From assembly GCA_963847625.1 (NCBI GenBank), contig CAWKAR010000021.1:960-64959 (forward strand): a stretch of 64,000 bases of DNA. The letters run 5' to 3'. Positions 3,198-62,043 of the stretch are shown here, in pieces; position 1 is the stretch's first letter; every line of letters starts with the position of its first letter. A program made the position numbers and the translations under genes. The notes beneath the pieces were generated by a model. That model did not search any database. It saw only the letters and a list, made by a program, of their open reading frames with translations, and had not been told where the DNA came from. The DNA comes from a candidate division FCPU426 bacterium. GTDB taxonomy: Bacteria; Oederibacteriota; Muellerivitia; Muellerivitales; Muellerivitaceae.

Positions 3198-3304
3198 AAT
3201 GAGGATGTCCGCGGCGCTCGAAAAGTGTGACGGTGGGCGGTCCAAAAGTGTGACACCCCCCGCCTTCCATACGCCTTACGGTGTATGGTCGTTGGTTAGC
3301 TTTA

Positions 3305-4078
3305 TCAATCCTTCTTGTCTTTGTTTTTGAGCCGTTTTTTTGCTTCCACCAGCCTGTGGCTTTGGCCGTTGGCCTCCAGAATATGCACCCGATGGGTCAA
3401 ACGGTCAATAAGTGCCCCCGTCATTCTCTCGGAACCCATGATTTCTACCCAGTTTTCAAAGGGAAGATTGGTCGTTACCATCAGGCTTGTGCGCTCATAG
3501 GCCTTGCTGACCACTTCGAACAGCAGCTCGGCCCCCGCCTTGGAGAAAGGAACGTACCCCAGTTCGTCCAGGACAATTAGATCGAGCCTGGCCAACTGAC
3601 GGTGGAACTTAGCCAATTGTTTCTCTTCGCGGCGCTCCAAAAGTTCTGTCACGAGGCCCGTGACGGAGAAGAAACGCACCGCCCGGCCCTGGCAGCAAGC
3701 CTGGAAGGCTAAGGCCGTGGCCAAATGGGTTTTACCCGTTCCTGAATTGCCGATCAGCAGGACGTTTTCTTTTTTGTCCATGTACTCGCCCCGCATGAGT
3801 TCCCGCGCCAGTTCTTGGTTGATCGAAGGTTGGGCCTTGAAATCGAATGTGTCCAAAGTCTTGAGAACGGGAAATCCGGCATCCCGGATGCGCCTCTCCT
3901 TGGCCCTGCGTTCTCGGTCCAGAAGTTCCAGTTCGGCCAGTTTGAGCAGGTATTGCGGATAGTCGCTGCGCTCGGTGCGGCAGAGCTGGGCCATCTTGTC
4001 ATACTCGCGGTTCATCGTAGGAAGTTTGAGTTTTTTGAGGTGATGTTCCAGCAAGAGGGTCTTTTTGGATTCGCTCAT
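3305..4078 (-). CDS. istB: IS21-family helper ATPase IstB
   Basis: 257 aa with Walker A GNSGTGKTH and the LIVLDELGY box. ATGA overlap with istA. Confidence 0.9.
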   Translation of the reverse strand: MSESKKTLLLEHHLKKLKLPTMNREYDKMAQLCRTERSDYPQYLLKLAELELLDRERRAKERRIRDAGFPVLKTLDTFDFKAQPSINQELARELMRGEYMDKKENVLLIGNSGTGKTHLATALAFQACCQGRAVRFFSVTGLVTELLERREEKQLAKFHRQLARLDLIVLDELGYVPFSKAGAELLFEVVSKAYERTSLMVTTNLPFENWVEIMGSERMTGALIDRLTHRVHILEANGQSHRLVEAKKRLKNKDKKD

Positions 4079-5634
4079 ACTTCACCTCCCGTCAACATCA
4101 GCTCACGGTAGGCCGAAAGATCCGTTCGGGCCACCTGAACCCGCCGCAAGTGCTCACGGCCGTCCAGGCTGAAGGTGGTCAGCCTGTAGTCCTCCCTGGG
4201 GTAGAGCAACTGGGCGAGGGCGTCACGGGTGTAAATTTCCATCTGCACGGCTTTTTCCACCGCTCTCGTAAGCCTCTCCATGGGATATTTTTCCAAAAGC
4301 TGCATCGTCTTGATGAATTCCCGCGCTCCTTCGCCGCGAAACTTTTCTTTGCCTTCCATGCGTCGACGCAGGAGAGTGAAACACTCCGGCAAATTCCAGT
4401 CTTCCAGGGGTCGAGCATGGTCGAGTGCGCCGGGTTTCCTCTCCAAAACCGCTAAATAATGCACTGGATTAAATGCCATGCCTTCCTTGCACCAAAGACG
4501 ATCATGGGTCGTAATCCGCTTGTCCTTGTAAAAAATATCCACTCGGTCAATGTATCCCTTCACTACCACCGGATGGTGGGCGTACTCCACGGGCACGGAA
4601 TAGTCGTTGGTGTCGAAGCGTACCAGAGACATGGACGTGGCCGTAGTGGACTGCTTCAGGCATGCGTCAAACGGAGTGTCTGGCAAAGGGCGGAAATGGG
4701 TTTTGTCCCCCTCAAGAAGCTGGGCTTTAGTCGCCCCTTTGCCGCGCAATTTGCGTTCTAAATCTTCACGACAGTTCACCACCAACTTTTTGTTCAGTTC
4801 TTCTAGGCTGCCTACTTGAGGGACCGGCACCATGAAGTTCAGTCGAACATACTTCACTCCGCCTTCCACCACACCTTTTTCGTTGCCCCTGCGTACGGTG
4901 CAGAAGTGGTGGTCGAAGAGATAGTGGCTTACCAATTGCTTGAAATTCCGGGTCAACTCCCGTTGGTGTACCCCGATCAACTTCTTTACGAGGGTTTTGG
5001 CGTTGTCGTAGCTGATCCGCCAAGGTACTCCACCAAAGTATTTAAAAGCCCGGATGTGGCCTTCCCACACGAATTCCGTGCTCTCCCGCTCAAATATCTG
5101 CACGAAGAAAGCGTCCGAATACGGCAGGGCCATCACGAAGTAGGGCCGTTTTACCAACACACCATTGAGCTTCACCAGGGCGTGTCCAAAATCCACCTGT
5201 GCCTCACCAGGTCGATGGGTCAAAGGTATAAAAACCTCACTGGTTCTCTTTTTGATCCCTCGCACCGCTTTTTTTACCTGGGTATAGCCTCCGGTGTAAC
5301 CATCTTCCGCGCACAAGCGCTCAAAGATACGCTTGGCGGTATGACGCTGTTTTTTGTGGGTGTGTTTGTCGTCTTCAAGAATTTGCTTGATGCGGCCCAG
5401 GAAGGGCCCCACCTTTGGCTGAGACCGCTCCTGGCTTATCTGGTAGCCCGGAGGCTGGCTATGGGCAAGAATCTTCTTGAGGGTTTCCCAATGAATACCC
5501 TCTTCTTCCATCACCTGGCGCTTGGAGACCCCTTCTACCAGCACTTTTTTGCGAATTTCGGTCCATCGGTCCATATCTTTGTACACTCCTTTTCCTTCCG
5601 GTATCTGTATTCCCAATTTCTGGAACCACATCAT
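4075..5634 (-). CDS. istA: IS21-family transposase IstA
   Basis: 519 aa with an N-terminal HTH region (true start may be the internal MDRWTEIRKK) and a DDE-type core. Sits directly upstream of istB. Confidence 0.85.
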   Translation of the reverse strand: MMWFQKLGIQIPEGKGVYKDMDRWTEIRKKVLVEGVSKRQVMEEEGIHWETLKKILAHSQPPGYQISQERSQPKVGPFLGRIKQILEDDKHTHKKQRHTAKRIFERLCAEDGYTGGYTQVKKAVRGIKKRTSEVFIPLTHRPGEAQVDFGHALVKLNGVLVKRPYFVMALPYSDAFFVQIFERESTEFVWEGHIRAFKYFGGVPWRISYDNAKTLVKKLIGVHQRELTRNFKQLVSHYLFDHHFCTVRRGNEKGVVEGGVKYVRLNFMVPVPQVGSLEELNKKLVVNCREDLERKLRGKGATKAQLLEGDKTHFRPLPDTPFDACLKQSTTATSMSLVRFDTNDYSVPVEYAHHPVVVKGYIDRVDIFYKDKRITTHDRLWCKEGMAFNPVHYLAVLERKPGALDHARPLEDWNLPECFTLLRRRMEGKEKFRGEGAREFIKTMQLLEKYPMERLTRAVEKAVQMEIYTRDALAQLLYPREDYRLTTFSLDGREHLRRVQVARTDLSAYRELMLTGGEV

Positions 5635-5710
5635 CCCGGATATTCGAGGAGTGTCACACTTTTCGACCGCCTTTTTTGCCCCCTAGACCGTCACACTTTT
5701 GGAACGCCGT

Positions 5711-7571: not shown

Positions 7572-8210
7572 TTAATTTTTAATGACTGCTGCTCGAATAA
7601 TGTGAGCAAATATAACCGCAATTATTATTGAGACCGCATTCCCAATTAAAAACATATTGAACCGATTACGACCACTGTGCCCTTCTTGCCAAATTTTCCA
7701 ATTACCCCCAACTTTAATGGCTAACCATCCGCCAATAAAATCAGGTTTATTAATTATTAATAAAAATGGATACAACACAGCTTCACAAGCACCTACTAGC
7801 ATTGCAGGCCATAAATTAGCATTGCGGATATCCTTTGAACTATCCAACTTGAATAAAGTTCGCATAACAATGGTCAAAGGATTAATTAGTAATGTTGCAC
7901 CAGCTATAGATAAACAATATATCATTGTTAATTTCCCCCACTTGTCCGCAGGTATGCAGGAATTTTCAAATGTAAACCAATTCGGAACAGTATGAAATAC
8001 AGAAACTAATATTAATCCCAGAACCACCCAAATAACTACAAAAGGGAAACTTTTATAGATAAAGAAGATTATCAATTCCTTTCTTATACCCCAGATTCTT
8101 TTTATCTTTTTTCGTTTTCGTCTGGTTTTCCCGCTTGTCTGCTTTTTCTTTGTCTTCTTCGCGCTTGCCTTCTTCGTCTTTTGCAACTTCCTTTTAATAT
8201 TTTTGGCCAA
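7572..8210 (-). CDS. Hypothetical membrane protein with extremely Lys/Arg-rich N-terminal tail (about 4 TM), AT-rich gene
   Basis: 212-aa ORF with a TTG start 8 nt after AAGGAG. The first ~45 aa are K/R-rich, followed by hydrophobic helices. No family recognised. Confidence 0.55.
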   Translation of the reverse strand: MAKNIKRKLQKTKKASAKKTKKKQTSGKTRRKRKKIKRIWGIRKELIIFFIYKSFPFVVIWVVLGLILVSVFHTVPNWFTFENSCIPADKWGKLTMIYCLSIAGATLLINPLTIVMRTLFKLDSSKDIRNANLWPAMLVGACEAVLYPFLLIINKPDFIGGWLAIKVGGNWKIWQEGHSGRNRFNMFLIGNAVSIIIAVIFAHIIRAAVIKN

Positions 8211-9030: not shown

Positions 9031-9317
9031 CTTGTCAGTCTGGCATTACATTACTTCTAGAGCCGCCGGAGATTGCATCTCCGGCCCGACGTCCGTTCTT
9101 CCTTCGGGAAGGCGGGCGTTTCTTTTTTATGGCACTTTTTATATCCCCCAAAACACCCCTTTAAAAAGAAAAACCCGCCAAAAGTGAGCATGCCCAAAGG
9201 GCAGAGGCTTGGCGGGTGTGCTGATATATTTATACCCAAACCGCAGGGTCATGGCAAGAACTCGTATAGGTATATGAATTTCTCGAGTTAATTCGGCCAT
9301 ATTACCAATACCTCAAA

Positions 9318-10369
9318 GCTGAATTCAACCAGTAAGTGCAACACCTTGACTAAAGACCTGCTCCGGCGTTTTGAAACGAAGGCACTTGCGAGGACGATGG
9401 TTTAGGATCCGTTCCACGCGTCGTACATTCGCTGGGGTTATAGTAGCAAAATCCGTTTTCTTGGGATAGAAGCGACGAACAAGACCTGCAGTATTTTCAA
9501 CACAACCTTTCTCCCAACTGTGGAAGGGCAAACAAAAGAATGAACGAGTGCCTGAAACACGATTCACCTGGAGATGTTCGACGTTTTCGGAGCCATTGTC
9601 GTATGTGATGGTACGGCGGAGGCCTTTTGAAATCCGAACCAACCGACGGTTGATTGCGGCTCTAGTGTGGAAAGCTGATTTTTGAGGTAGCCAAGCCAGT
9701 TTCACCAGACGACTTTTGCGCTCGACCATAACCAGAAGTGAGGGTTTGCTTTTCCGGGAGATGATGGTGTCGGCCTCCCAGTGCCCGAATTGCTGTCTTG
9801 TTTCAACGATAGCTGGTCGTTGGGTAATGGGAGTACGTTGAGGAATATGGCTTTTGCGATGTTTTTGAGTGTGCCAACGTCGCAAACGTTTTCGATGGGC
9901 CCGGGCTAGATGAGGAATGAGGTTTCGAGCTTCGCAGTAGATGAATTGATAGATGGCTTCATGGGAAACGGAAAGTTTTGGTTTCTCCCGGCGAAGAAAA
10001 CCGGCAATTTGCTCGGGCGAGAGTCCACGAGGTATTTCTCGCAGTACTAAACGGCGAATCTCAGGATTTTTAAGCCTTAAATGAGTACGTGAAAGACGGT
10101 TTCGGTGTTCTGCACGCATGTGAGCTCTGGCGGGCAGGTAGCGGCGAGATCGTATAGGAGGGGCGTTGCGCTTCAGTTCTCGGGAAATGCTGGATACATC
10201 ACGGCCCAGACGGCGTGCGATTTCCCGAAGGGAGAGGCCTTCAGCATTCCAAACTGAAATTTCTTCACGTTCGGCTAACGACAGATGCTTGTAGGATGAT
10301 TTCATAGCACTTAGGATAACCCCCGGGTTCTGCCGGGTCTAAGTGTTGCACTTCGTTATTGAACTGGGG
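9318..10369 (-). mobile_element. IS30-family IS, type 1, copy A (1052 bp)
   Basis: Appears identical to 60992-62043. Boundaries come from where the two copies diverge. 3-bp target duplication AAA (9315-9317 / 10370-12). ~25-bp imperfect TIR containing AGTGCAACAC. Confidence 0.9.
9325..10305 (-). CDS. IS30-family transposase
   Basis: 326 aa with an N-terminal HTH (LSLREIARRLGR..S.ISRELKRN) and a DDE core (HWE.DT...YDNGSE). Identical protein at 60999..61979. Confidence 0.92.
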   Translation of the reverse strand: MKSSYKHLSLAEREEISVWNAEGLSLREIARRLGRDVSSISRELKRNAPPIRSRRYLPARAHMRAEHRNRLSRTHLRLKNPEIRRLVLREIPRGLSPEQIAGFLRREKPKLSVSHEAIYQFIYCEARNLIPHLARAHRKRLRRWHTQKHRKSHIPQRTPITQRPAIVETRQQFGHWEADTIISRKSKPSLLVMVERKSRLVKLAWLPQKSAFHTRAAINRRLVRISKGLRRTITYDNGSENVEHLQVNRVSGTRSFFCLPFHSWEKGCVENTAGLVRRFYPKKTDFATITPANVRRVERILNHRPRKCLRFKTPEQVFSQGVALTG

Positions 10370-11588: not shown

Positions 11589-11778
11589 GCGATTATCCCC
11601 TTTAGATAAGTAATTAAATAAGGTTAAACCGCCGATCAAATCCGATGGACGCCGATAAGTTTGAAAACGCTTTGAACTATAAGCCGATATCGGCGTCAAT
11701 CGGCCGTTATCGGCGGTTAAATGGTTTGACTATCGAATCTAATTTTCTTGTTTACTTATTTCAAAGGGATATTCGCCT
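11589..11778. mobile_element. 190-bp MITE inserted in the 3' end of the 563-aa surface-protein gene
   Basis: Imperfect ~25-bp TIRs (GCGATTATCCCCTTTAGATAAGTAA / reverse complement AGGCGAATATCCCTTTGAAATAAGTAA). 8-bp direct repeat AATAATAA at 11581-88 and 11779-86. Excision restores the ORF. Confidence 0.8.
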
Positions 11779-13550: not shown

Positions 13551-13640
13551 TGTGCCGATTCACATAATTGTAAAAATAATAAGGAGATCGGTACGATACC
13601 AGCTTCAATATCATCTTTATGGAAAGCTGGTATATGCCGA
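13551..13640 (+). repeat. S element (two-hairpin structured repeat), copy S1
   Basis: H1 is GTGCCGAT-loop-ATCGGTAC and H2 is ACCAGCTT-loop-AAGCTGGT, followed by an extra TGCCGAT. Confidence 0.7.
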
Positions 13641-13877
13641 TCATCCACTCGTAAAAATGGTTTCATTCTTTCTATACTTTATAGATGGCTGAAAGGCTGA
13701 TTTATTCCAATAAATATAGGTTTTTAAAGAAATAATTTTATCAGTTTTAGGGTAATGAAAACAAAGATAGCATGTATGGGCCAGCAACCTACGTAGTAGC
13801 TTTGATCAATAGTAGCTGATCAAAATAACGCGGGTTGCTCCTGGTAAGGAGCCTATCCGCATACGGAGGGCTGACCC

Positions 13878-14984
13878 ATGGGAAATAATAGCACGGTGGT
13901 AGGGCTGGATGTTCATAAGGAAACGATCACGATTGCAGTTTTAAGGCCCGACAAGGATCGTCCTGATCCCTCGGTTACGGTTGAAAATCAGCCATCAATC
14001 ATTGAAAAGAAAGTACGGGAACTTAATCGCCGCCATGCCCCACTGGAATTCGTTTATGAGGCTGGGCCTGGGGGATTTGCTTTGTATAGGCAGATTACCC
14101 AATTGGGACACCCTTGTGCGGTGATTGCGCCCGCATGGATGCCGATGAAACCTGGGGACCGAGTCAAGACGGACCGAAAGGACGCAGAAAAGCTGTCTTG
14201 GTATTGGCGCATGAGGGATTTGAAAGAAGTCCGGGTACCCACGCCCGAAGAAGAATCCGTGAGGGATTTGCTGCGTGTCCGGGAAGATGTTCTCGCAAAC
14301 CAGTTGAGAGCCCGTCATCGGTTATTGAAATTCCTGCTTAGGCAAGGCCGGATTTATCGGGGTGGCAAACACTGGACCCAAGCCCATAGGGAATGGTTGA
14401 GACACCAGAAGTTTGAGCTGCCAAATCTCGTAAAGACCTATGAAGCGAATTACCGAATTTTGGCTGAGATTGACGTGCACTTGGCTGATTTGAATTGTGA
14501 AGTTGAATTGCTGGCACAAGACGAGAAATATCGAATTGCTGTCAGCTATTTGAAATGCCTGAAAGGCGTTAACACACTCACGGCCATGACTTTATTAGCA
14601 GAAAGCGGAGATTTCAGGCGGTTTAAAAACGCCCGCAGTTATATGCGATATACGGGAATGGTCAGTTGGGAAGACAGCACCGGAAGCCATGTTTACCGGG
14701 GCGGGATTGTCAAATCCGGAAATGCCCATTTGAGGCGAGTGCTAGTCCAAGGGGCATGGACCTATCAGCTACGAAGCCTTGGGAGTCCAACACTCGCTAA
14801 ACGGAGAAAAGGTTGTCCCCCGGAAGTTATACATTTAGCACGAAAAGCTGATGAACGTTTGCATTTGAAGTTTCGGCGGATGGTAAGCCGAAACAAACGT
14901 TCCCAGGTGGCGGTAGTGGCCATCGCACGGGAATTGGCTGGCTTTATCTGGGCGATTGGACAGATGATCCCATCCGATCAGTAA
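13878..14984 (+). CDS. IS110-family DEDD transposase/recombinase
   Basis: 368 aa with N-terminal VGLDVHK and C-terminal LKGVNTLTAMTLLAESGD..RF...Y.G...SG (Transposase_20-like). Confidence 0.9.
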   Translation: MGNNSTVVGLDVHKETITIAVLRPDKDRPDPSVTVENQPSIIEKKVRELNRRHAPLEFVYEAGPGGFALYRQITQLGHPCAVIAPAWMPMKPGDRVKTDRKDAEKLSWYWRMRDLKEVRVPTPEEESVRDLLRVREDVLANQLRARHRLLKFLLRQGRIYRGGKHWTQAHREWLRHQKFELPNLVKTYEANYRILAEIDVHLADLNCEVELLAQDEKYRIAVSYLKCLKGVNTLTAMTLLAESGDFRRFKNARSYMRYTGMVSWEDSTGSHVYRGGIVKSGNAHLRRVLVQGAWTYQLRSLGSPTLAKRRKGCPPEVIHLARKADERLHLKFRRMVSRNKRSQVAVVAIARELAGFIWAIGQMIPSDQ

Positions 14985-14987
14985 TAG

Positions 14988-15279
14988 ATCCGATGAGAAG
15001 AAAAAGAAGGACGAGCTCTGATTTCAGGAGCGTGGCGCGGCACGGAGAACCCTCGACGACCCCTTGTGCAATGAAGTCTTATTTCATGACGCACGGACAA
15101 AGATCGAGGCAGCTCCCGACGACAGGTCATCATGCGTCCCTGCCCTTTGGGGTAATACGCGAATATCAGTTTGATCAACCGTCGGAAATGGCTACGCTCT
15201 TGGAATCAGGGCTCTGTCGTGCTGGTCCGTGAAAAGACCAACACCCTAGAATCTGAAGGTTGACTGGCCCATACATATC
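14988..15279 (+). ncRNA. Candidate bridge-type guide RNA region in the 3' non-coding end of IS110 #1
   Basis: Long non-coding right end with no credible ORF. By analogy, IS1111-group elements are reported to encode bridge RNAs 3' of the recombinase. Structure not folded here. Confidence 0.3.
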
Positions 15280-15280
15280 A

Positions 15281-15580
15281 GGGGTCAGATCGCACGCACC
15301 GCATGCCGAACCCCATTTATACTTTCAATGAAAGTTCGGCGCAGATTTAATATAAATCTGCACTGGCAATCTTCGCACTCGGCTGGTGGCCTCGCGCGGC
15401 CAGTATCGCACCGATTTCATTAACGGTTTTATGGTGAATCGGCGCAGCGTCCGATAGGGTACATTTTTCATTTTAGGTTCGCCCCAAAACCTCCTGAAAA
15501 AAAACAGGCTCTTACTATGCCACCCATTTAGAAAATCGAGAATGGAGAATGGAAAATGAAAAATTATTGGGGATTTACCG
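15281..15580. repeat. R1 multi-hairpin repeat, copy 1
   Basis: Near-identical to 18661- and 24020- over ~245 bp. Starts 1-2 bp after the IS110 #1 right end. Confidence 0.8.
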
Positions 15581-15678
15581 AGGACAGAAACATGAAAAAC
15601 ACTAAAAATGGACAGATTCGACAAGCTCACCGCAGGGCAACGAAGAATGAATAATTAATGTGGATTTACACTGGGCGT

Positions 15679-15752
15679 GCCAGCCTTCTATAAAAATAAA
15701 ACGAGGCTGGTACTGTACCAATTCCATTAACTGTCTTATGGAAAATTGGCAC
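15679..15752 (-). repeat. S element, copy S2
   Basis: On the + strand it reads GCCAGCC-loop-GGCTGGT, TAC, GTACCAAT-loop-ATTGGCAC. H1 carries the compensatory CCAAT/ATTGG variant. Confidence 0.65.
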
Positions 15753-16444: not shown

Positions 16445-16573
16445 GGGGTCAGGCAAACATTCAACACTTTAGGCCCACCCCAAAACCCCACGCCAAAAAA
16501 CAGGCTCTTATTATGCCACCAAGAACAAACAATGAATAATGGACAATGGAGAATGAAAAAAACAATTGGGAAT
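16445..16573. repeat. R1 repeat, internally deleted copy (head + tail + heptamers)
   Basis: GGGGTCAGG head is joined directly to CACTTTAGGCCCACCCCAAAACCCCACGCC...GGCTCTTATTATGCCACC and AATGRAN heptamers. It ends at the IS110 #2 left end. Confidence 0.65.
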
Positions 16574-16648: not shown

Positions 16649-17716
16649 ATGAGAAATAGTAGCACAGTGGAAAGAAGGGTTGGTATCACCAAGAAAGACT
16701 GCGTTTACGTTGGTTTAGATGTGCACAAACGCAGTATTTACGCGGCAGTCAGAGTGAATGGGGTTGAGGCTGGGATAAAATCCCTGCCGGCTGATCGTGA
16801 GGTCGTAAAAAGATTTTTGGAGAAGTACCAGCTAGGTTTGCGGAAAGTGGTGTACGAAGCCGGCCCCACGGGATATGGATTAGCGAGGCGGCTGAAAGAT
16901 GTTGGAATACCGGTAGAGGTAGTTGCCCCTGGAAAGATTCCCAGATCGGTTGTGGAAGGGGCCAAGTCAGACCGCCTGGACTGCCGGATGCTTGCCGAAT
17001 ACGCGGAGAAGGGGCTATTGCGGGCGGTAGTGATACCGACCGTAGAAGAGGAAGCATACCGCCAGGTATTGAGGCTGAGGAGTTCATTGGTAGAGAAGAG
17101 AAGGCGTGTGAAACAGCAAATTAAGGGTTTTCTCTTGCAATACGGCCTTGAGGAACCGGAAGGTCTGAGCCATTGGTCACGGAAAGCCGTGAAGGCTCTT
17201 GGAAAGATCGAATTGAATAAGGCGCTGCGTTTCACGCTGGATAGGTTTTTGGAGGAGTTTTATTACCTGGAAGATCAACTGGGAAAGGTGAAAGACCAAA
17301 TCAAGGAGCAATACAGCTCGAAGGTCTATGAGAAAAAAACCAGGATATTGAGGAGTCATCCAGGGGTCGGAGAAGTGACGGCGGCGCAGATGCTGGCCGA
17401 GGTGTATCAGCCGGAGAGATTCCAGAACGCGAAACAAGTGGTGGCATATGTTGGATTGGCACCCCGAGTGAGGCAAAGTGGGGAAAGCCGGAAGGAAGGG
17501 CCATTACTAAAAGCAGGGAAAAATCATTTGAGATCGGCTTTGTTGGAAAGCGCCTGGGCTTGGATTCGGGTGGATCGGCAGGCGGCGAAGATTTACGGAA
17601 GGTTGGCGAGAAACACAGGAAGCCCCAATAAGGCCATCGTGGCGATGGCTAGGAAGATATTGGTTCACCTGTGGACAATGTTGGTTCGGCAAGAGGCTTA
17701 TCGGCCATTGGCTTAA
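16649..17716 (+). CDS. IS110-family DEDD transposase/recombinase
   Basis: 355 aa with VGLDVHK and ...HPGVGEVTAAQMLAEV..PERF.....V.AYVGLAPR..QSG... Confidence 0.9.
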   Translation: MRNSSTVERRVGITKKDCVYVGLDVHKRSIYAAVRVNGVEAGIKSLPADREVVKRFLEKYQLGLRKVVYEAGPTGYGLARRLKDVGIPVEVVAPGKIPRSVVEGAKSDRLDCRMLAEYAEKGLLRAVVIPTVEEEAYRQVLRLRSSLVEKRRRVKQQIKGFLLQYGLEEPEGLSHWSRKAVKALGKIELNKALRFTLDRFLEEFYYLEDQLGKVKDQIKEQYSSKVYEKKTRILRSHPGVGEVTAAQMLAEVYQPERFQNAKQVVAYVGLAPRVRQSGESRKEGPLLKAGKNHLRSALLESAWAWIRVDRQAAKIYGRLARNTGSPNKAIVAMARKILVHLWTMLVRQEAYRPLA

Positions 17717-17719
17717 GCA

Positions 17720-17927
17720 GGTTAAAAGGAGTGGTTTAAGTTTCGTGATTCGATTTTTGGGGATGACCACGGCTAATTCCGGTGTCTAGAACACGCCCAT
17801 TAGGTGGTGGCTCCCTTTATTACGTATCGGATCTTATCATGTGCCTTGAGCACGAATAGCAGGATGAATTCACGAAAACTTTGGACCATTCAATAAAATC
17901 ACGGGGCTTGACGAACGGCCTCATAGC
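17720..17927 (+). ncRNA. Candidate bridge-type guide RNA region in the 3' end of IS110 #2
   Basis: ~208-nt non-coding right end. Same reasoning as for element #1. Confidence 0.25.
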
Positions 17928-17964
17928 AGGAATTAGAAGTTGGGAATTGGTCGTCAAACACTGA

Positions 17965-18577: not shown

Positions 18578-18660
18578 AATGCGACATCAAGTGCTCGTTT
18601 CCATTTTCGGTGCAATATGCGGTCACAATTTGTGACCGCATCTATCATCCGGGGAACATA

Positions 18661-18950
18661 GGGGTCAGACTCCACGCTCCGCATGCCGAACCCCATTTAT
18701 ACTTTCAATGAAAGTTCGGCGCAGATTTAATATAAATCTGCACTGGCAATCTTCGCACTCGGCTGGTGGCCTCGCGCGGCCAGTATCGCACCGATTTCAT
18801 TAACGGTTTTATGGTGAATCGGCGCAGCGTGTAGTAGGGTACAAATTACACTTTACGTCCGCCCCAAATCCCCATGCAAAAGAACAGGCTCTTATTATGA
18901 CACCACATCAACAATTAGAAATGAGGAATTAGAAATTGGGAATTGACGGC
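18661..18950. repeat. R1 multi-hairpin repeat, copy 2
   Basis: Near-identical to copy 3 up to GGCTCTTATTATG. The tail has AATTAGAAATGAGGAATTAGAAATTGGGAATT repeats. Confidence 0.8.
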
Positions 18951-19954: not shown

Positions 19955-21009
19955 CCCGAGTTCCATAAGTAAGTGCAACACTTAGTGTCTGAAGAAGGCC
20001 GCATGAATAGGATATGCGGCTATGAAAAAGAAATACAAGCATTTAAGCGTTGAAGAAAGAGATCATTTATCCGTCTTGAAAGGAAAGGGTCTTAGCCTTC
20101 GAGCAATTTCACGCGCCTTGAAGAGGTCTCCTTCCACCCTCTCCAGGGAACTCAAGCGCAATGCTCCCCCTATCCGTTCTGGTTATTATCTTTCTCATCG
20201 AGCCCATCAACGGTATGTTGACCGCAACCAACAACGAGCACGCCGTTTACGCCTGAAAACAAAACGAATTCGTGCCTACGTCCGTCGTCAATTGAAACGA
20301 GGCTGGTCTCCAGAACTCATTTCAGGTCGATTAGGTCACCTACGGCCTAAGCAAACCATTGGTCCTGAAGCTATCTATCAGTGGGTTTATGCTGAAGCCA
20401 CTGAGCTGATTCCTTGCCTAGTTCGACACCACCGGCGACGATTCTCATTTGGCCATAGCCGTAAGCACGCCAAAAACCATATCCCAGGCCGTGTTTCCAT
20501 CGATAAGCGCTCCGAGATCGCCAATCAACGCAAGCAATTCGGCCATTGGGAAACCGACACCATGGTCTCTCGTCAGAGTAAAGTTGCTATGCGGGCTCTC
20601 GTCGAGCGTCAAAGCCGTTTTTCCAAGTTGGGAAAGCTCAAACGAAAGACCGCTCGCCAAATGAGTCATAGCCTCAACCGCGCTTTATGCCGCTTCCCTC
20701 AAGACGCCCGCCTGAGTCTGACCTATGACAACGGAACCGAAAACACCAACCACTTGGAAACCAACCACGTGCTTGGTACAAAATCCTTTTTCTGCGCCCC
20801 TTTCCACAGTTGGGAAAAAGGTACGGTGGAAAATACTATCGGTCTTGTCCGCCGCCATTTGCCTAAAAAGACTGATCTTGCTAAAGTGTCCTTCAAAGAA
20901 TTCAGGACCATAGAAAGATGGCTCAATAACAGGCCCAGGAAATGTTTGGGCTTTAAAACTCCGGCGGAAGTCTTCCGGCGAAGTGTTGCACTTACTCCGT
21001 GAATTCGGC
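19955..21009 (+). mobile_element. IS30-family IS, type 2, copy C (1055 bp)
   Basis: Matches 37618-38672 with 1 nt difference seen. 3-bp target duplication CGG (19952-54 / 21010-12). TIR contains GTAAGTGCAACAC. Confidence 0.9.
20022..21002 (+). CDS. IS30-family transposase
   Basis: 326 aa. Identical protein at 37685..38665. Confidence 0.92.
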   Translation: MKKKYKHLSVEERDHLSVLKGKGLSLRAISRALKRSPSTLSRELKRNAPPIRSGYYLSHRAHQRYVDRNQQRARRLRLKTKRIRAYVRRQLKRGWSPELISGRLGHLRPKQTIGPEAIYQWVYAEATELIPCLVRHHRRRFSFGHSRKHAKNHIPGRVSIDKRSEIANQRKQFGHWETDTMVSRQSKVAMRALVERQSRFSKLGKLKRKTARQMSHSLNRALCRFPQDARLSLTYDNGTENTNHLETNHVLGTKSFFCAPFHSWEKGTVENTIGLVRRHLPKKTDLAKVSFKEFRTIERWLNNRPRKCLGFKTPAEVFRRSVALTP

Positions 21010-21782: not shown

Positions 21783-24300
<2,518 letters not shown>

Positions 24301-24389
24301 AAATTTTAGGAGAAAGTTTAATGGGCGTTGCTATTTATGAAATTCGGGCCTATTGGTGCCAGGAGGGTTGACCCCTTGTTCACATGCAT

Positions 24390-24464
24390 GCCAGCCATCA
24401 ATAATTCTTTTAATGAGGCTGGTATCGTACCGATTTCTTTAACTGTCTTAATGTGAATCGGCAC
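24390..24464 (-). repeat. S element, copy S3
   Basis: Reads GCCAGCC-loop-GGCTGGT, ATC, GTACCGAT-loop-ATCGGCAC. Confidence 0.7.
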
Positions 24465-24813: not shown

Positions 24814-24842
24814 TTTATTTCACCCCCGTAATGAAATTACAA

Positions 24843-26535: not shown

Positions 26536-26758
26536 GCCACGGATGCATGGGATTCATGGGATTTACTTAAAATTAAAAATTCATAATTCAAAATTTAAAA
26601 TTCATTCATGTTTTTCATGAATGTTTTGGCTATCCGAGTGCATCCCCTGCATCTGTGGCTGAGAAGGGTTTGCCTTAGCAGATCATTCATAATTCAAAAT
26701 TTAGAATTCATAATTCATTCCTGGATTTTTGGAATGTCATGCATCCCCTGAATCTGTG
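26536..26758. repeat. M2 composite MITE-like repeat, copy a (between hisA and hisH)
   Basis: Inverted ends GCCACGGATGCATGGGAT / CATCCCCTGCATCTGTGGC / CATCCCCTGAATCTGTG. ~120 bp identical to 33195-33319. Confidence 0.7.
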
Positions 26759-26832
26759 CCGATCATCTATAAAAATTATTGGAGATCGGTACGATACCAC
26801 CTTCCTTATAATCTTTATTGAAAGGTGGCATG
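26756..26832 (+). repeat. S element, copy S4 (abuts the M2 end)
   Basis: Reads GTGCCGAT-loop-ATCGGTAC, GAT, ACCACCTT-loop-AAGGTGG. Confidence 0.65.
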
Positions 26833-26882
26833 TGGTTAAAATTTGGTTTTGCTTACGCCTTTCAGTTTTAAGAATCCCTAAA

Positions 26883-32041: not shown

Positions 32042-32190
32042 TTTTTACCCCTAATTCTACCTGGGAGGCGCGGAGGGCGCTCAAAAGGGCCCAAATAAAA
32101 AAACCGTCCTTTCGACGGCCTTCCGCTATCCGGGTGATTCAATTTTTTTCCTGCGCGGGCCTTTGCGGCCACGGATGAAAATAAAAAAAA

Positions 32191-32569
32191 GGAAGCAGGT
32201 CATAAGCCGAATTCTGTGAATGTGACCATTTCTCTTGCGGATACCGTTGCCGGCCCCGTCTTTGCGATCATACCCGAAGGCCTCCCTTTCCTGTTTGGAA
32301 AAGGATGGGACGGACAGCCCCACAGCCTCCCTATTTGATCTTGCTCCGGATGGGGTTTGCAATGCCGCCTCCATCGCTGGAGACGCGGTGGGCTCTTACC
32401 CCACCTTTTCACCCTTACCCCCCTTTCGGAAGGCGGTTTGTTTTCTGTTGCACTTTCCTTCGCCATTGTCGTGGCGACTGGGCGTTACCCAGCATCTTGT
32501 CCTGCGGAGTTCGGACTTTCCTCACCCCCGGGCCCGAAGGTCCGGGAAGCGCGGTCACGGCCTGCTTCC
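32191..32569 (-). ncRNA. rnpB: RNase P RNA (bacterial type A)
   Basis: The minus strand contains GAGGAAAGUCCG (P4 5' strand, ~32505-32525) and ACAGAAUUCGGCUUAU (P4 3' strand, ~32203-32218). P1 pairs GGAAGCAGG... with ...CCUGCUUCC, followed by a U-run. The ORFs drawn here are spurious. Confidence 0.9.
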
Positions 32570-33125: not shown

Positions 33126-33319
33126 GCCACGGATGCATGGGATTCATGGGATAAATAAAACACAAATTTAAAGCCCTTTTTCTTTGGCCTATCTAAATGC
33201 ATCCCCTGCATCTGTGGCTGAGAAGGGTTTGCCTTAGCAGATCATTCATAATTCAAAATTTAGAATTCATAATTCATTCCTGGATTTTTGGAATGTCATG
33301 CATCCCCTGAATCCGTGGC
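33126..33319. repeat. M2 composite MITE-like repeat, copy b
   Basis: Runs from GCCACGGATGCATGGGAT to CATCCCCTGAATCCGTGGC. The right ~120 bp is identical to copy a. Confidence 0.7.
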
Positions 33320-33482
33320 AAAGGACTAGGTTTTGCTTAACACTTTTTAGACTTAAGAATTCCTTATTTTATTTATCTTTGTTCACTCAGTTTTGTTTTA
33401 CTTGGTCAACAATGAAGCTAAATATTAAATCTTCGATTTAATATTTGACCACAATTTAAAATTCAAAATTTAAAACTTAAAA

Positions 33483-36910: not shown

Positions 36911-36950
36911 TTCCCGGCCTTTCTTGTTTCATCTCCCCGCGTTTCCCCAT

Positions 36951-37024
36951 GCCAGCCTTCCATAAAGCTGTTATTGAGGCTGGTATAGTACCGATCTCAT
37001 TATATTTTTATGGATGATCGGCAC
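36951..37024 (-). repeat. S element, copy S5
   Basis: Reads GCCAGCC-loop-GGCTGGT, ATA, GTACCGAT-loop-ATCGGCAC. Confidence 0.7.
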
Positions 37025-37035
37025 ATTCCTCATTC

Positions 37036-37527
37036 CTAATTTTTATTTTTTTGGCCGTATCTTTGAACCACCAACTCGATGAGGTTCGTCGTCGAGCGGC
37101 CTTTTACGACGGGTATGTTCATGACTTTCCCGCCCCTGGCCCGCACCAAGTCCGCCCCGATAATCTTGTCGAGTGCCCAATCCCCTCCCTTGACCAGCAC
37201 GTCGGGTTGGAGGATTTGGATGACCTTATAGGGATTGTCTTCATCGAAAGAGGTGGCGTAATCCACGCAGGTGAGGGCCAATAACATTTCGGCGCGTTCT
37301 GCCAGCGGAAGGAGGGGTTTCAGGGGGCCCTTGATGCGTTTGACCGAGGCGTCGGAATTGAGCCCCACCACGAGCAAATCGCCCTGTTTGCGGGCTTCCT
37401 GGAGATAGGTGACATGGCCCAAATGGAGAAGGTCGAAGACTCCGTTGGTGAAGACTACTTTTTGACCTTGATTTTGAAGGTTTTTAAGGACAGGCGCTAA
37501 TTTGGAAGGCTCTAAAAAATGATCCAA
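37036..37527 (-). CDS. hldC: D-beta-D-heptose 1-phosphate adenylyltransferase (RfaE domain II type), copy 1
   Basis: 163 aa. VVFTNGVFDLLHLGHVTYLQEAR... Confidence 0.85.
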   Translation of the reverse strand: MDHFLEPSKLAPVLKNLQNQGQKVVFTNGVFDLLHLGHVTYLQEARKQGDLLVVGLNSDASVKRIKGPLKPLLPLAERAEMLLALTCVDYATSFDEDNPYKVIQILQPDVLVKGGDWALDKIIGADLVRARGGKVMNIPVVKGRSTTNLIELVVQRYGQKNKN

Positions 37528-37617
37528 TTCATCTCAACTTCACTTGGGATATTTGATTATAGGGAAAGACTCGGGAAGTAGCAACCTGAACTTTCCACCG
37601 ACAACATAATTTTAAAT

Positions 37618-38672
37618 CCCGAGTTCCATAAGTAAGTGCAACACTTAGTGTCTGAAGAAGGCCGCATGAATAGGATATGCGGCTATGAAAAAGAAATACA
37701 AGCATTTAAGCGTTGAAGAAAGAGATCATTTATCCGTCTTGAAAGGAAAGGGTCTTAGCCTTCGAGCAATTTCACGCGCCTTGAAGAGGTCTCCTTCCAC
37801 CCTCTCCAGGGAACTCAAGCGCAATGCTCCCCCTATCCGTTCTGGTTATTATCTTTCTCATCGAGCCCATCAACGGTATGTTGACCGCAACCAACAACGA
37901 GCACGCCGTTTACGCCTGAAAACAAAACGAATTCGTGCCTACGTCCGTCGTCAATTGAAACGAGGCTGGTCTCCAGAACTCATTTCAGGTCGATTAGGTC
38001 ACCTACGGCCTAAGCAAACCATTGGTCCTGAAGCTATCTATCAGTGGGTTTATGCTGAAGCCACTGAGCTGATTCCTTGCCTAGTTCGACACCACCGGCG
38101 ACGATTCTCATTTGGCCATAGCCGTAAGCACGCCAAAAACCATATCCCAGGCCGTGTTTCCATCGATAAGCGCTCCGAGATCGCCAATCAACGCAAGCAA
38201 TTCGGCCATTGGGAAACCGACACCATGGTCTCTCGTCAGAGTAAAGTGGCTATGCGGGCTCTCGTCGAGCGTCAAAGCCGTTTTTCCAAGTTGGGAAAGC
38301 TCAAACGAAAGACCGCTCGCCAAATGAGTCATAGCCTCAACCGCGCTTTATGCCGCTTCCCTCAAGACGCCCGCCTGAGTCTGACCTATGACAACGGAAC
38401 CGAAAACACCAACCACTTGGAAACCAACCACGTGCTTGGTACAAAATCCTTTTTCTGCGCCCCTTTCCACAGTTGGGAAAAAGGTACGGTGGAAAATACT
38501 ATCGGTCTTGTCCGCCGCCATTTGCCTAAAAAGACTGATCTTGCTAAAGTGTCCTTCAAAGAATTCAGGACCATAGAAAGATGGCTCAATAACAGGCCCA
38601 GGAAATGTTTGGGCTTTAAAACTCCGGCGGAAGTCTTCCGGCGAAGTGTTGCACTTACTCCGTGAATTCGGC
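37618..38672 (+). mobile_element. IS30-family IS, type 2, copy D (1055 bp)
   Basis: Matches 19955-21009. 3-bp target duplication AAT (37615-17 / 38673-75). Inserted between the metallophosphoesterase gene and hldC. Confidence 0.9.
37685..38665 (+). CDS. IS30-family transposase
   Basis: Identical protein to 20022..21002. Confidence 0.92.
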   Translation: MKKKYKHLSVEERDHLSVLKGKGLSLRAISRALKRSPSTLSRELKRNAPPIRSGYYLSHRAHQRYVDRNQQRARRLRLKTKRIRAYVRRQLKRGWSPELISGRLGHLRPKQTIGPEAIYQWVYAEATELIPCLVRHHRRRFSFGHSRKHAKNHIPGRVSIDKRSEIANQRKQFGHWETDTMVSRQSKVAMRALVERQSRFSKLGKLKRKTARQMSHSLNRALCRFPQDARLSLTYDNGTENTNHLETNHVLGTKSFFCAPFHSWEKGTVENTIGLVRRHLPKKTDLAKVSFKEFRTIERWLNNRPRKCLGFKTPAEVFRRSVALTP

Positions 38673-38674
38673 AA

Positions 38675-38760
38675 TGTTAAATTCTAAATTTTGGATCGAT
38701 TTCCGCCTTTCGGAAATCCTCAATAATATAAAATTTAAAATCGAGAATTAAAATTTTTTC
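38675..38760. repeat. AT-rich palindromic element (same family as 7305-7410)
   Basis: Reads AAATTCTAAATTTTGGATCGATTTCCGCCTTTCGGAAATC...AAATTTAAAATCGAGAATTAAAA. Confidence 0.5.
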
Positions 38761-53245: not shown

Positions 53246-53322
53246 GTGCCGATTATCCAAAAATATTTCATTCGGAAATCGGTACTATACCGACCTCCAT
53301 AAATACTTCATAGAAGGTCGGC
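53246..53322 (+). repeat. S element, copy S6 (abuts the M3 copy)
   Basis: Reads GTGCCGAT-loop-ATCGGTAC, TAT, ACCGACCT-loop-AGGTCGG. Confidence 0.7.
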
Positions 53323-53446
53323 ATGCGAGGAATGCCCCGCGAATAGCGGGGCGGTAATAACGAAGCAACCTCAGTTAAGATAACTGCTTTAAACCACCCA
53401 TAAACTTGGGTTGCTTCTCCACAAAGATCGTGGATCGCAATGACAA
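53323..53446. repeat. M3 MITE-like repeat, copy b (left end replaced by or abutting S6)
   Basis: ...GCGAGGAATGCCCCGCGAATAGCGGGG...GATCGCAATGACAA, related to 34311-34462. Confidence 0.5.
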
Positions 53447-60991: not shown

Positions 60992-62043
60992 GCTGAATTC
61001 AACCAGTAAGTGCAACACCTTGACTAAAGACCTGCTCCGGCGTTTTGAAACGAAGGCACTTGCGAGGACGATGGTTTAGGATCCGTTCCACGCGTCGTAC
61101 ATTCGCTGGGGTTATAGTAGCAAAATCCGTTTTCTTGGGATAGAAGCGACGAACAAGACCTGCAGTATTTTCAACACAACCTTTCTCCCAACTGTGGAAG
61201 GGCAAACAAAAGAATGAACGAGTGCCTGAAACACGATTCACCTGGAGATGTTCGACGTTTTCGGAGCCATTGTCGTATGTGATGGTACGGCGGAGGCCTT
61301 TTGAAATCCGAACCAACCGACGGTTGATTGCGGCTCTAGTGTGGAAAGCTGATTTTTGAGGTAGCCAAGCCAGTTTCACCAGACGACTTTTGCGCTCGAC
61401 CATAACCAGAAGTGAGGGTTTGCTTTTCCGGGAGATGATGGTGTCGGCCTCCCAGTGCCCGAATTGCTGTCTTGTTTCAACGATAGCTGGTCGTTGGGTA
61501 ATGGGAGTACGTTGAGGAATATGGCTTTTGCGATGTTTTTGAGTGTGCCAACGTCGCAAACGTTTTCGATGGGCCCGGGCTAGATGAGGAATGAGGTTTC
61601 GAGCTTCGCAGTAGATGAATTGATAGATGGCTTCATGGGAAACGGAAAGTTTTGGTTTCTCCCGGCGAAGAAAACCGGCAATTTGCTCGGGCGAGAGTCC
61701 ACGAGGTATTTCTCGCAGTACTAAACGGCGAATCTCAGGATTTTTAAGCCTTAAATGAGTACGTGAAAGACGGTTTCGGTGTTCTGCACGCATGTGAGCT
61801 CTGGCGGGCAGGTAGCGGCGAGATCGTATAGGAGGGGCGTTGCGCTTCAGTTCTCGGGAAATGCTGGATACATCACGGCCCAGACGGCGTGCGATTTCCC
61901 GAAGGGAGAGGCCTTCAGCATTCCAAACTGAAATTTCTTCACGTTCGGCTAACGACAGATGCTTGTAGGATGATTTCATAGCACTTAGGATAACCCCCGG
62001 GTTCTGCCGGGTCTAAGTGTTGCACTTCGTTATTGAACTGGGG
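60992..62043 (-). mobile_element. IS30-family IS, type 1, copy B (1052 bp)
   Basis: Appears identical to 9318-10369. 3-bp target duplication TAA (60989-91 / 62044-46). Inserted in the last codons of the cupin gene. Confidence 0.9.
60999..61979 (-). CDS. IS30-family transposase
   Basis: Identical protein to 9325..10305. Confidence 0.92.
   Translation of the reverse strand: MKSSYKHLSLAEREEISVWNAEGLSLREIARRLGRDVSSISRELKRNAPPIRSRRYLPARAHMRAEHRNRLSRTHLRLKNPEIRRLVLREIPRGLSPEQIAGFLRREKPKLSVSHEAIYQFIYCEARNLIPHLARAHRKRLRRWHTQKHRKSHIPQRTPITQRPAIVETRQQFGHWEADTIISRKSKPSLLVMVERKSRLVKLAWLPQKSAFHTRAAINRRLVRISKGLRRTITYDNGSENVEHLQVNRVSGTRSFFCLPFHSWEKGCVENTAGLVRRFYPKKTDFATITPANVRRVERILNHRPRKCLRFKTPEQVFSQGVALTG

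Follow-up and report, generated by a model that had tools for sequence, protein, structure and literature searches.

The DNA around position 13,551 raises the question of what kind of element a short intergenic repeat can be when it folds into two hairpins (H1 and H2) whose stems change in a compensated manner from copy to copy. In the window, by which we mean the whole 64-kb stretch of DNA that was analysed, an earlier note had described free copies of such a repeat, here called S, and had read a G.T pair in the H1 stem as the signature of selection on an RNA or on one strand of single-stranded DNA. Our verdict is that S represents a new family of a known kind, the non-autonomous palindromic mobile elements, and we regard it as probable that S, which is non-coding, belongs to the MITE/REPIN kind of non-autonomous bacterial mobile DNA.

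A covariance model of S was based on six copies of the window and five of the related contig L121, 11 in all (alignment A2). Run without filters on the 64-kb window, it returned six free copies at 80-97 bits (E 1e-17 to 1e-21) and three modules inside the composite repeat R1 at 41 bits each, and no further copies in the whole window. Together with an alignment of nine stretches, these values confirmed the six free copies where they had been placed. The H1 pattern GTGCCGATN{15,35}ATCGGTAC had five matches in the window, as compared with 0 expected from 100 shuffles. The six copies are ~70-85% alike and are distributed as follows:

13553-13632, plus strand: S copy 1, 80 nt, 82.6 bits; unit A at 13553-13593, unit B at 13597-13632; flanks TG (13551-13552) and TA (13633-13634).
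13635-13647, plus strand: a third, truncated S unit, TGCCGATCATCCA, directly 3' of copy 1.
15678-15751, minus strand: S copy 2, 74 nt, 80.5 bits; CCAAT/ATTGG stem variant; flanks CG...CG.
24389-24463, minus strand: S copy 3, 75 nt, 89.8 bits; flanks TG...TG.
26757-26830, plus strand: S copy 4, 74 nt, 92.3 bits; flanks TG...TG.
36950-37023, minus strand: S copy 5, 74 nt, 96.6 bits; flanks TG...TG.
53247-53323, plus strand: S copy 6, 77 nt, 82.9 bits; flanks TG...TG.

S has no coding capacity and is AT-rich, with a GC content of 0.35-0.41 as compared with ~0.53 for the window. As the earlier note had stated, its copies are intergenic and lie in both orientations: 99 of 110 overlap no long ORF, and between co-directional flanking ORFs 15 point in the same direction as the genes and 19 in the opposite one, a random distribution. 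Copies 1 and 3 are found in divergent regions, the latter with katG/R1 on one side and the gene at 24831 on the other; copy 4 lies in a convergent region and copy 2 beside R1. Copy 6 is antisense between co-directional genes, xylB and the gene upstream, and thus opposite to both, and copy 5 sits in sense inside an operon, where it lies in the spacer that separates kdsB from the heptose-1-phosphate adenylyltransferase gene. In related genomes these two genes overlap by 11 nt (L244/L250:~10001-10011), whereas in the window they are 125 nt apart (36911-37035), a gap made up of copy 5 and extra flanking sequence. The comparison implies that the start region of kdsB has been rebuilt, and S elements mark this one derived intergenic spacer. 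Short AT-rich heptamer-like repeat tracts (GAGAATG/GGAATTA/GGAATGA; 15530-15560, 16520-16560, 17925-17950, 18905-18945, and 37027-37050) adjoin several repeat elements of the window, one of them lying directly beside copy 5.

The two hairpins and the compensatory changes listed for them in the earlier note all proved correct. In alignment A2, 94% of the cells are paired in the two-hairpin structure, compared with 26-44% for slid controls. Compensatory changes of the stems are significant, six pairs changing on both sides versus 2.0 +/- 0.9 in shuffles, a number reached by 1 of 500 shuffles, and this covariation is concentrated in few subfamily-defining changes. Stem position 5 of unit B reads GC 80/AT 12, position 6 AT 76/GC 11, and position 8 CG 81/TA 5. 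Overall, stems are conserved and loops are free to drift; most metagenome copies were gathered with a pattern that fixed H1 and part of H2, so that the conservation of H1 and H2 among them is partly ascertainment.

Such covariation, an invariant G.U pair in H1 and the position of some copies within operons, where they would be co-transcribed (e.g. 36950-37023), are features that speak for a structured non-coding RNA, either a small RNA or a cis-regulatory one, whose hairpins would be kept because selection acts on the RNA copied from one strand. Compensatory stem change is, however, a known property of REP elements (Nunvar 2010, PMC2817692), and DNA elements recognised as hairpins are expected to show it equally. 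A comparison of the two halves shows how S is built: a ~38-nt hairpin unit, TGCC-xyz-AT-rich loop-z'y'x'-GGTA, occurs twice as an inverted doublet, the two units meeting tail to tail at one central base. H1 is homologous to the reverse complement of H2, as can be seen in the 36.9-kb copy (H1, GTGCCGATCATCCATAAAAATATAATGAGATCGGTAC; reverse complement of H2, ATGCCAGCCTTCCATAAAGCTGTTATTGAGGCTGGTAT). The ends read 5'-TGCC...GGCA-3' and the length is 74-85 nt, or 141 nt for a long form; the terminal inverted repeats are TGCCGAY... and ...RTCGGCA and the halves are inverted copies of each other, as in MITEs. Among close unit pairs in 834 kb, 93 of 98 were in the (+,-) arrangement with a 1-nt gap, and such pairs always combine one 'GTGCC-GAT' unit with one 'ATGCC-GAC/AGC' unit.

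This architecture changes the reading of the G.T pair. The pair itself is as constant as had been claimed, since the third H1 pair is G.T in all 10 distinct copies and, in a larger set (~100 unique copies, all sources), in every one of 99 A units. The H2 stem had been given as 6-7 bp and is actually 10 bp long, with an outer part ATA.../...CAT whose third pair is A.C on the plus strand in 7 of 10 distinct copies, which is G.T on the minus strand. Of the B units in the larger set, 91 of 96 have G.T when each is read in its own orientation. Each strand carries one complete and one mismatched hairpin, which contradicts the earlier view of a fold that only one strand can complete. In agreement with this, the opposite strand of every copy also matches the covariance model (53-69 bits), and both strands reach similar minimum free energies in the six copies (-27.8/-27.7, -25.4/-26.1, -27.6/-26.0, -26.4/-28.6, -24.6/-34.5, and -27.9/-20.9 kcal/mol). 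Because the G.T/A.C asymmetry is mirrored between the halves, neither strand is privileged, and the 'wobble' would be a fixed difference between the outer (TGCC) and the inner (GGTA) arm of each unit.

Selection on an RNA is thus very improbable in our judgement: H2 mirrors the H1 wobble on the opposite strand, fold energies are equal between strands, orientation relative to genes is random (the 15 versus 19 given above), and copies show insertion polymorphism with TG flanks, as described below. Moreover, no promoter-like or terminator-like signal was present inside the two S copies scanned, and Rfam yielded no match, in line with the earlier note, which had not recognised S as a described RNA family. 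An Rfam E-value search with one S copy (E <= 10) gave chance matches only and no family, and the gathering search of the window returned RNase P only. The latter is a bacterial RNase P RNA of class A (32187-32569, minus strand, 262 bits) between kdsA-like and aroA-like genes, in a block that is syntenic with related MAGs. For genome scanning, these results mean that stem covariation together with a conserved G.U pair is insufficient for calling an RNA, as a palindromic DNA element made of inverted copies of an asymmetric hairpin mimics the RNA picture until both halves are compared.

The flanks of each copy were joined and then searched for uninterrupted matches, which gave five independent comparisons of filled and empty sites:

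Filled in L127; empty in L228 and L191, with a single TG.
Filled in L139; empty in L229, with a single TG.
Filled in L166 and L206; empty in L132, with a single TG.
Filled in L195, L136, and L151; empty in L175 and L218, with a single TG.
Filled at window 26757-26830; empty at window 33183-33364, a paralogue of another repeat, with a single TG.

Filled sites read TG-[TGCC...GGCA]-TG, and one TG is present in all five empty sites; S inserts at a TG dinucleotide. TG was found on both sides of 99 of 103 unique copies, in constant orientation relative to the element, and CA/CA in 0 of 103; for this count, orientation was set solely by the internal centre GGTAC-N-ATACC, and the G of the left flank belonged to the search pattern whereas its T and the right TG did not. 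The signature fits five of the six window copies. The exception is copy 2 (CG...CG), in which the central A has changed to G, restoring pairing with the flanking C. Indeed, the outermost pair of each hairpin uses a flank base (flank G with centre C; centre A with flank T), and for this reason the centre is asymmetric, reading C-N-A in 97 of 99 copies. The search for target-site duplications and empty sites that the earlier note had proposed therefore gave a positive answer, and what it had named as evidence against its own proposal, namely that the copies are a MITE with target-site duplications, is essentially what the TGCC...GGCA termini, the direct TG flanks and the empty sites amount to, with three parses of the TG being possible: the dinucleotide may have been duplicated (2 bp), the element may have entered bluntly between its two bases (T^G), or an element ending in its own TG may have been placed 3' of an existing one. 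A symmetric DDE cut is not expected to give a fixed orientation to a non-palindromic dinucleotide. The fixed orientation of S relative to TG consequently points to a strand- or orientation-specific mechanism, and direct TG flanks that are coupled to the orientation of the element and pair with its centre make an unusual signature, one that hints at a non-classical mobilising enzyme.

Copy 4 provides the insertion within the window, since it interrupts another repeat (26624-26758 and 26834-26880) whose paralogue at 33183-33364 is uninterrupted. This other intergenic repeat family, with GCATCCCCTGCATCTGTGGCTGA-type modules, is represented at window 26624-26758 and 33183-33330 and in L175, L195, L136, L151, and L218, and S has inserted into it on at least two independent occasions, each time at another TG. 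In L146, two S elements form a tandem array with one common TG, at a site where L232 has a single S. By comparison with this array, the truncated unit at 13635-13647 is taken as a BIME-like array remnant, and both resemble arrays of the BIME type.

Arrays of this type, together with conserved stems and free loops, the divergence of copies within the window and the presence of S on both sides of housekeeping genes, would also suit a REP-like site that the host has domesticated, which is no longer or never was self-mobile and has spread mainly by recombination or duplication. As part of that reading, S would serve as a binding site for a host protein (a nucleoid protein, gyrase, or an IHF-like factor) or as an mRNA-stabilising hairpin. 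We consider domestication unlikely, as precise insertions at TG into unrelated sequences and into other repeats, with invariant termini, are hard to obtain by recombination alone; such a site would, in addition, be compatible with past mobility.

The mobile-element reading extends to the three modules of R1, which the earlier note had listed as members of the family. They are real relatives of S, each scoring 41 bits on the minus strand, but the 'module' proved to be merely part of the 141-nt long form, S-long:

15304-15444, minus strand: S-long copy 1, 141 nt, inside R1; 41 bits.
18684-18824, minus strand: S-long copy 2, 141 nt, inside R1; 99% identical to copy 1.
24043-24183, minus strand: S-long copy 3, 141 nt, inside R1; 99% identical to copy 1.

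Read on the minus strand, S-long consists of a TG flank, an A-type unit (CGCCGAT..ATCGGTG), a C, a ~75-nt core, a B-type unit (GCCGAAC..GTTCGGCA), and a second TG flank, so that its ends and flanks are of the same kind as those of S. The core contains a GC-rich hairpin and a GCAGATTTA/TAAATCTGC hairpin. In the A unit, T-A has become C-G with the G.T pair kept, exactly as had been noted for H1 of the R1 copies. One further copy (81%) is carried by L121, and no longer relative of S-long was found by BLAST. R1 itself is a composite of an outer segment, S-long, and a 97-nt module that ends each copy (15468-15564, 18848-18944, and 24207-24303); the three R1 copies (15275-15525, 18655-18905, and 24014-24264) are 90-98% identical over 251 nt. 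The 99% identity of the S-long copies suggests recent duplication or mobility of the composite. Taken together, S and the other repeat families that host it explain much of the intergenic repeat content of the window. Two repeats of other kinds were also observed. A third palindromic family of ~95 nt (window 11627-11721; L210:586-690 and 2785-2888; L144 and L132) has the layout AACCGCCGAT...ACGCCGAT...ATCGGCGT...ATCGGCGGTT and has a CCGAT/ATCGG stem motif in common with S and S-long. At 53-2014, eight or so tandem 177-nt units (65-76% identical) lie within long minus-strand ORFs (e.g. 925-2238) and probably encode a repetitive surface protein.

R1 brings S close to insertion sequences of the IS110 family, and S might be tied to these as a preferred target or as a donor moved by an IS110-type recombinase with a 2-nt core. 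The window contains two IS110-family transposase genes (13878-14984 and 16649-17716), the IS1111-like element at 13759-15286 abuts R1, which hosts S-long, and the direct, orientation-coupled TG flanks resemble a recombination core. Nevertheless, we regard this link as the least probable of the alternatives. The ends of the IS1111-like element (AAACAAAG...CAGGGGTC) are unlike those of S, and S lies 126 nt outside it. In L121, the same insertion sequence has no abutting S, the nearest being ~1.9 kb away among the matches listed. Guide-RNA-directed insertion by IS110 elements is expected at long, specific targets, which the diverse flanks of S do not resemble. The idea that S copy 1 supplies the bridge RNA for the neighbouring IS1111-like element was likewise rejected, as the copy ends at 13632 and the element starts at 13759; near the remaining S copies there is no IS110 gene.

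The insertion sequences themselves can be described as follows. The IS1111-like (IS110-family) element spans 1528 nt and is 99.9% identical to the copy in L121, which defines its limits; subterminal inverted repeats (ATGTATGGGCCAG/CTGGCCCATACAT) are present, whereas a duplication is not seen. On the right it terminates in ...CAGGGGTC, immediately next to the beginning of R1 (GGGGTCAGAC where R1 is uninterrupted); in L121, what adjoins this end is a D6-like module. Another copy of the 97-nt module (16464-16560) lies ahead of the second IS110-family transposase gene (16649-17716), for whose exact protein no record was found elsewhere. Four IS30-family copies, each with a 326-aa transposase, belong to two types that are ~70% identical (a, 9318-10368 and 60992-62042; b, 19955-21009 and 37617-38683), with 99.7-100% identity within a type. 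An IS21-like element at ~3200-5710 encodes IstA (4075-5634) and IstB (3305-4078) and has repeated terminal motifs (GTGTCACACTTTTCGACCGCC). An IS3-like element is present in L121 and L123; in L121, tandem ~26-nt repeats (TAATGCCGCTGGATTATCTCCC-like; 7740-7842 and 9125-9150) flank an IS3-family element with the inverted repeats TGGACTGCGCCCT.ACC.

None of the IS30-, IS21-, IS1111-, or IS3-like elements in the ~1 Mb of sequence covered was an autonomous insertion sequence with TGCCGAY-like ends. A search for outward-facing S unit pairs 100-4000 nt apart returned chance pairs and a different palindromic family only, and no transposase was found among the ORFs flanked by S on both sides, which are ordinary genes (hemD/hemE, ubiD, hflX-like, and FAA hydrolase). 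The suggestion that S behaves as single-stranded DNA hairpins like those of REP/RAYT systems is supported in outline by the inverted-doublet architecture and stays a viable one. No homologue of E. coli RayT was detected by phmmer at maximum sensitivity in 6652 ORFs from 924 kb, outside which a single-copy gene could easily lie, and a crude motif scan of the same 924 kb found no HxH...YxxNP (Y1) motif. Integron attC sites were considered and rejected; on inspection, no GTTRRRY-type core was seen in the unit consensus, and there was no integrase among the window proteins scanned (Pfam, NCBIfam).

Outside the window, S is abundant in particular samples. The ENA metagenome contig L121 encodes a transposase identical to that of 13878-14984, and comes from the same or a near-identical organism; it has at least 8 S matches in 21 kb, and the window has 6 S and 3 S-long in 64 kb. 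A specific S pattern was found in metagenomes at at least 120 loci, mostly in peat, bog, and soil samples and in the assembly prefix OLLS01, and the covariance model identified well over 100 S copies in these loci. None of the S-bearing metagenome loci had nucleotide similarity of >=300 nt to the window, and there were no S copies in viral contigs. The exact PyrG protein of the window had no record match, and the nearest KdsB proteins, from MAGs, have about 79-86% amino-acid identity. No S was found in ~90 kb of loci fetched via these related KdsB proteins, which comprised ~20 kb from each of three relatives syntenic with the window and further contigs with the same gene. Its frequency in the peat, bog, and soil loci and its absence from these KdsB-relative loci indicate that S is an abundant but lineage-restricted family, abundant in uncultivated bacteria of peat and wetland.

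From these observations we infer that S is, or was, mobilised in trans, its hairpin units serving as putative recognition sites of an enzyme encoded outside the window. Recognition of the units would explain the compensatory stems, the invariant TGCC/GGTA with its G.T wobble, and the drifting loops. In our own weighting, about half of the expectation would fall on a REP/RAYT-like HUH enzyme that acts on single-stranded DNA in an orientation-specific, hairpin-recognising manner, a smaller share on a classical DDE transposase with a 2-bp duplication, and the smallest on a recombinase that exchanges at a 2-nt TG core. Any effect of S on neighbouring genes would be secondary. A bolder proposal, to which we give limited credence, is that S and S-long are the non-autonomous partners of an undescribed mobilisation system that is orientation-specific and reads hairpins; candidates would be a RAYT-like HUH enzyme beyond the usual proteobacterial range or a small recombinase acting at a non-palindromic TG core. 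If either were true, stems that close by pairing with the flanking target dinucleotide would define a new mechanistic class of bacterial miniature element.

Several known systems can be compared with S. IS200/IS605-derived miniatures of the PATE type have two subterminal hairpins and always insert in the same orientation beside an invariant short oligonucleotide, which is not truly duplicated; this mode is one valid parse of the TG flanks. The two hairpins of IS200/IS605 are repeated directly and are read on a single strand, whereas the units of S are inverted copies and its hairpins extend to the very ends of the element; in addition, no Y1 or TnpB gene was seen here. The Caulobacter/Brucella CIR elements, which are CerM-associated, resemble S as ~100-nt intergenic sequences that are predicted to fold into two long hairpin arms with a short linker (PMC2229807), but S lacks their GANTC motif and has no sequence similarity to them. 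Classical MITEs (Correia, RUP, ERIC, and others; PMC2229807) are likewise <200 bp, non-coding, and AT-rich, with terminal inverted repeats, and S, which is non-coding, multicopy and below ~300 bp, falls within the size expected of a MITE. In both, the flanking dinucleotide is fixed and occurs once where a site is empty, sites are polymorphic (filled or empty), and insertions are found in other repeats and IS-rich regions. The differences are that the flank of S is a non-palindromic, orientation-coupled TG and that of MITEs TA, that each terminal repeat of S is itself a hairpin, so that two arms are formed rather than one long stem, and that no insertion sequence with ends matching S was found.

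REP, BIME, and REPIN elements have in common with S that short imperfect palindromic units occur as inverted doublets and in tandem alternating arrays (PMC2817692, PMC3116915). The likeness extends to an intergenic location that includes operons, to compensatory stems, to a likely copy number of hundreds per genome, and to a conserved asymmetry at the hairpin foot, with a TGTG-like head in S unit A. To our knowledge, REPINs have not been described with direct TG...TG flanks; S further differs in its units of 38-45 nt with AT-rich loops, REPs being GC-rich palindromes of 20-35 nt, and in that no RAYT was found in the 0.92 Mb searched here. As for the GT(A/G)G head of REPs (REP table in PMC2817692), S has TGTGCC in unit A and, when unit B is taken in its own orientation, CATGCC there. 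Because this head is only half matched and the RAYT search covered partial sequence, we place S outside the RAYT-REP family. Among the systems compared, the REPIN/REP-BIME system is, by its architecture, the nearest known kind to S.
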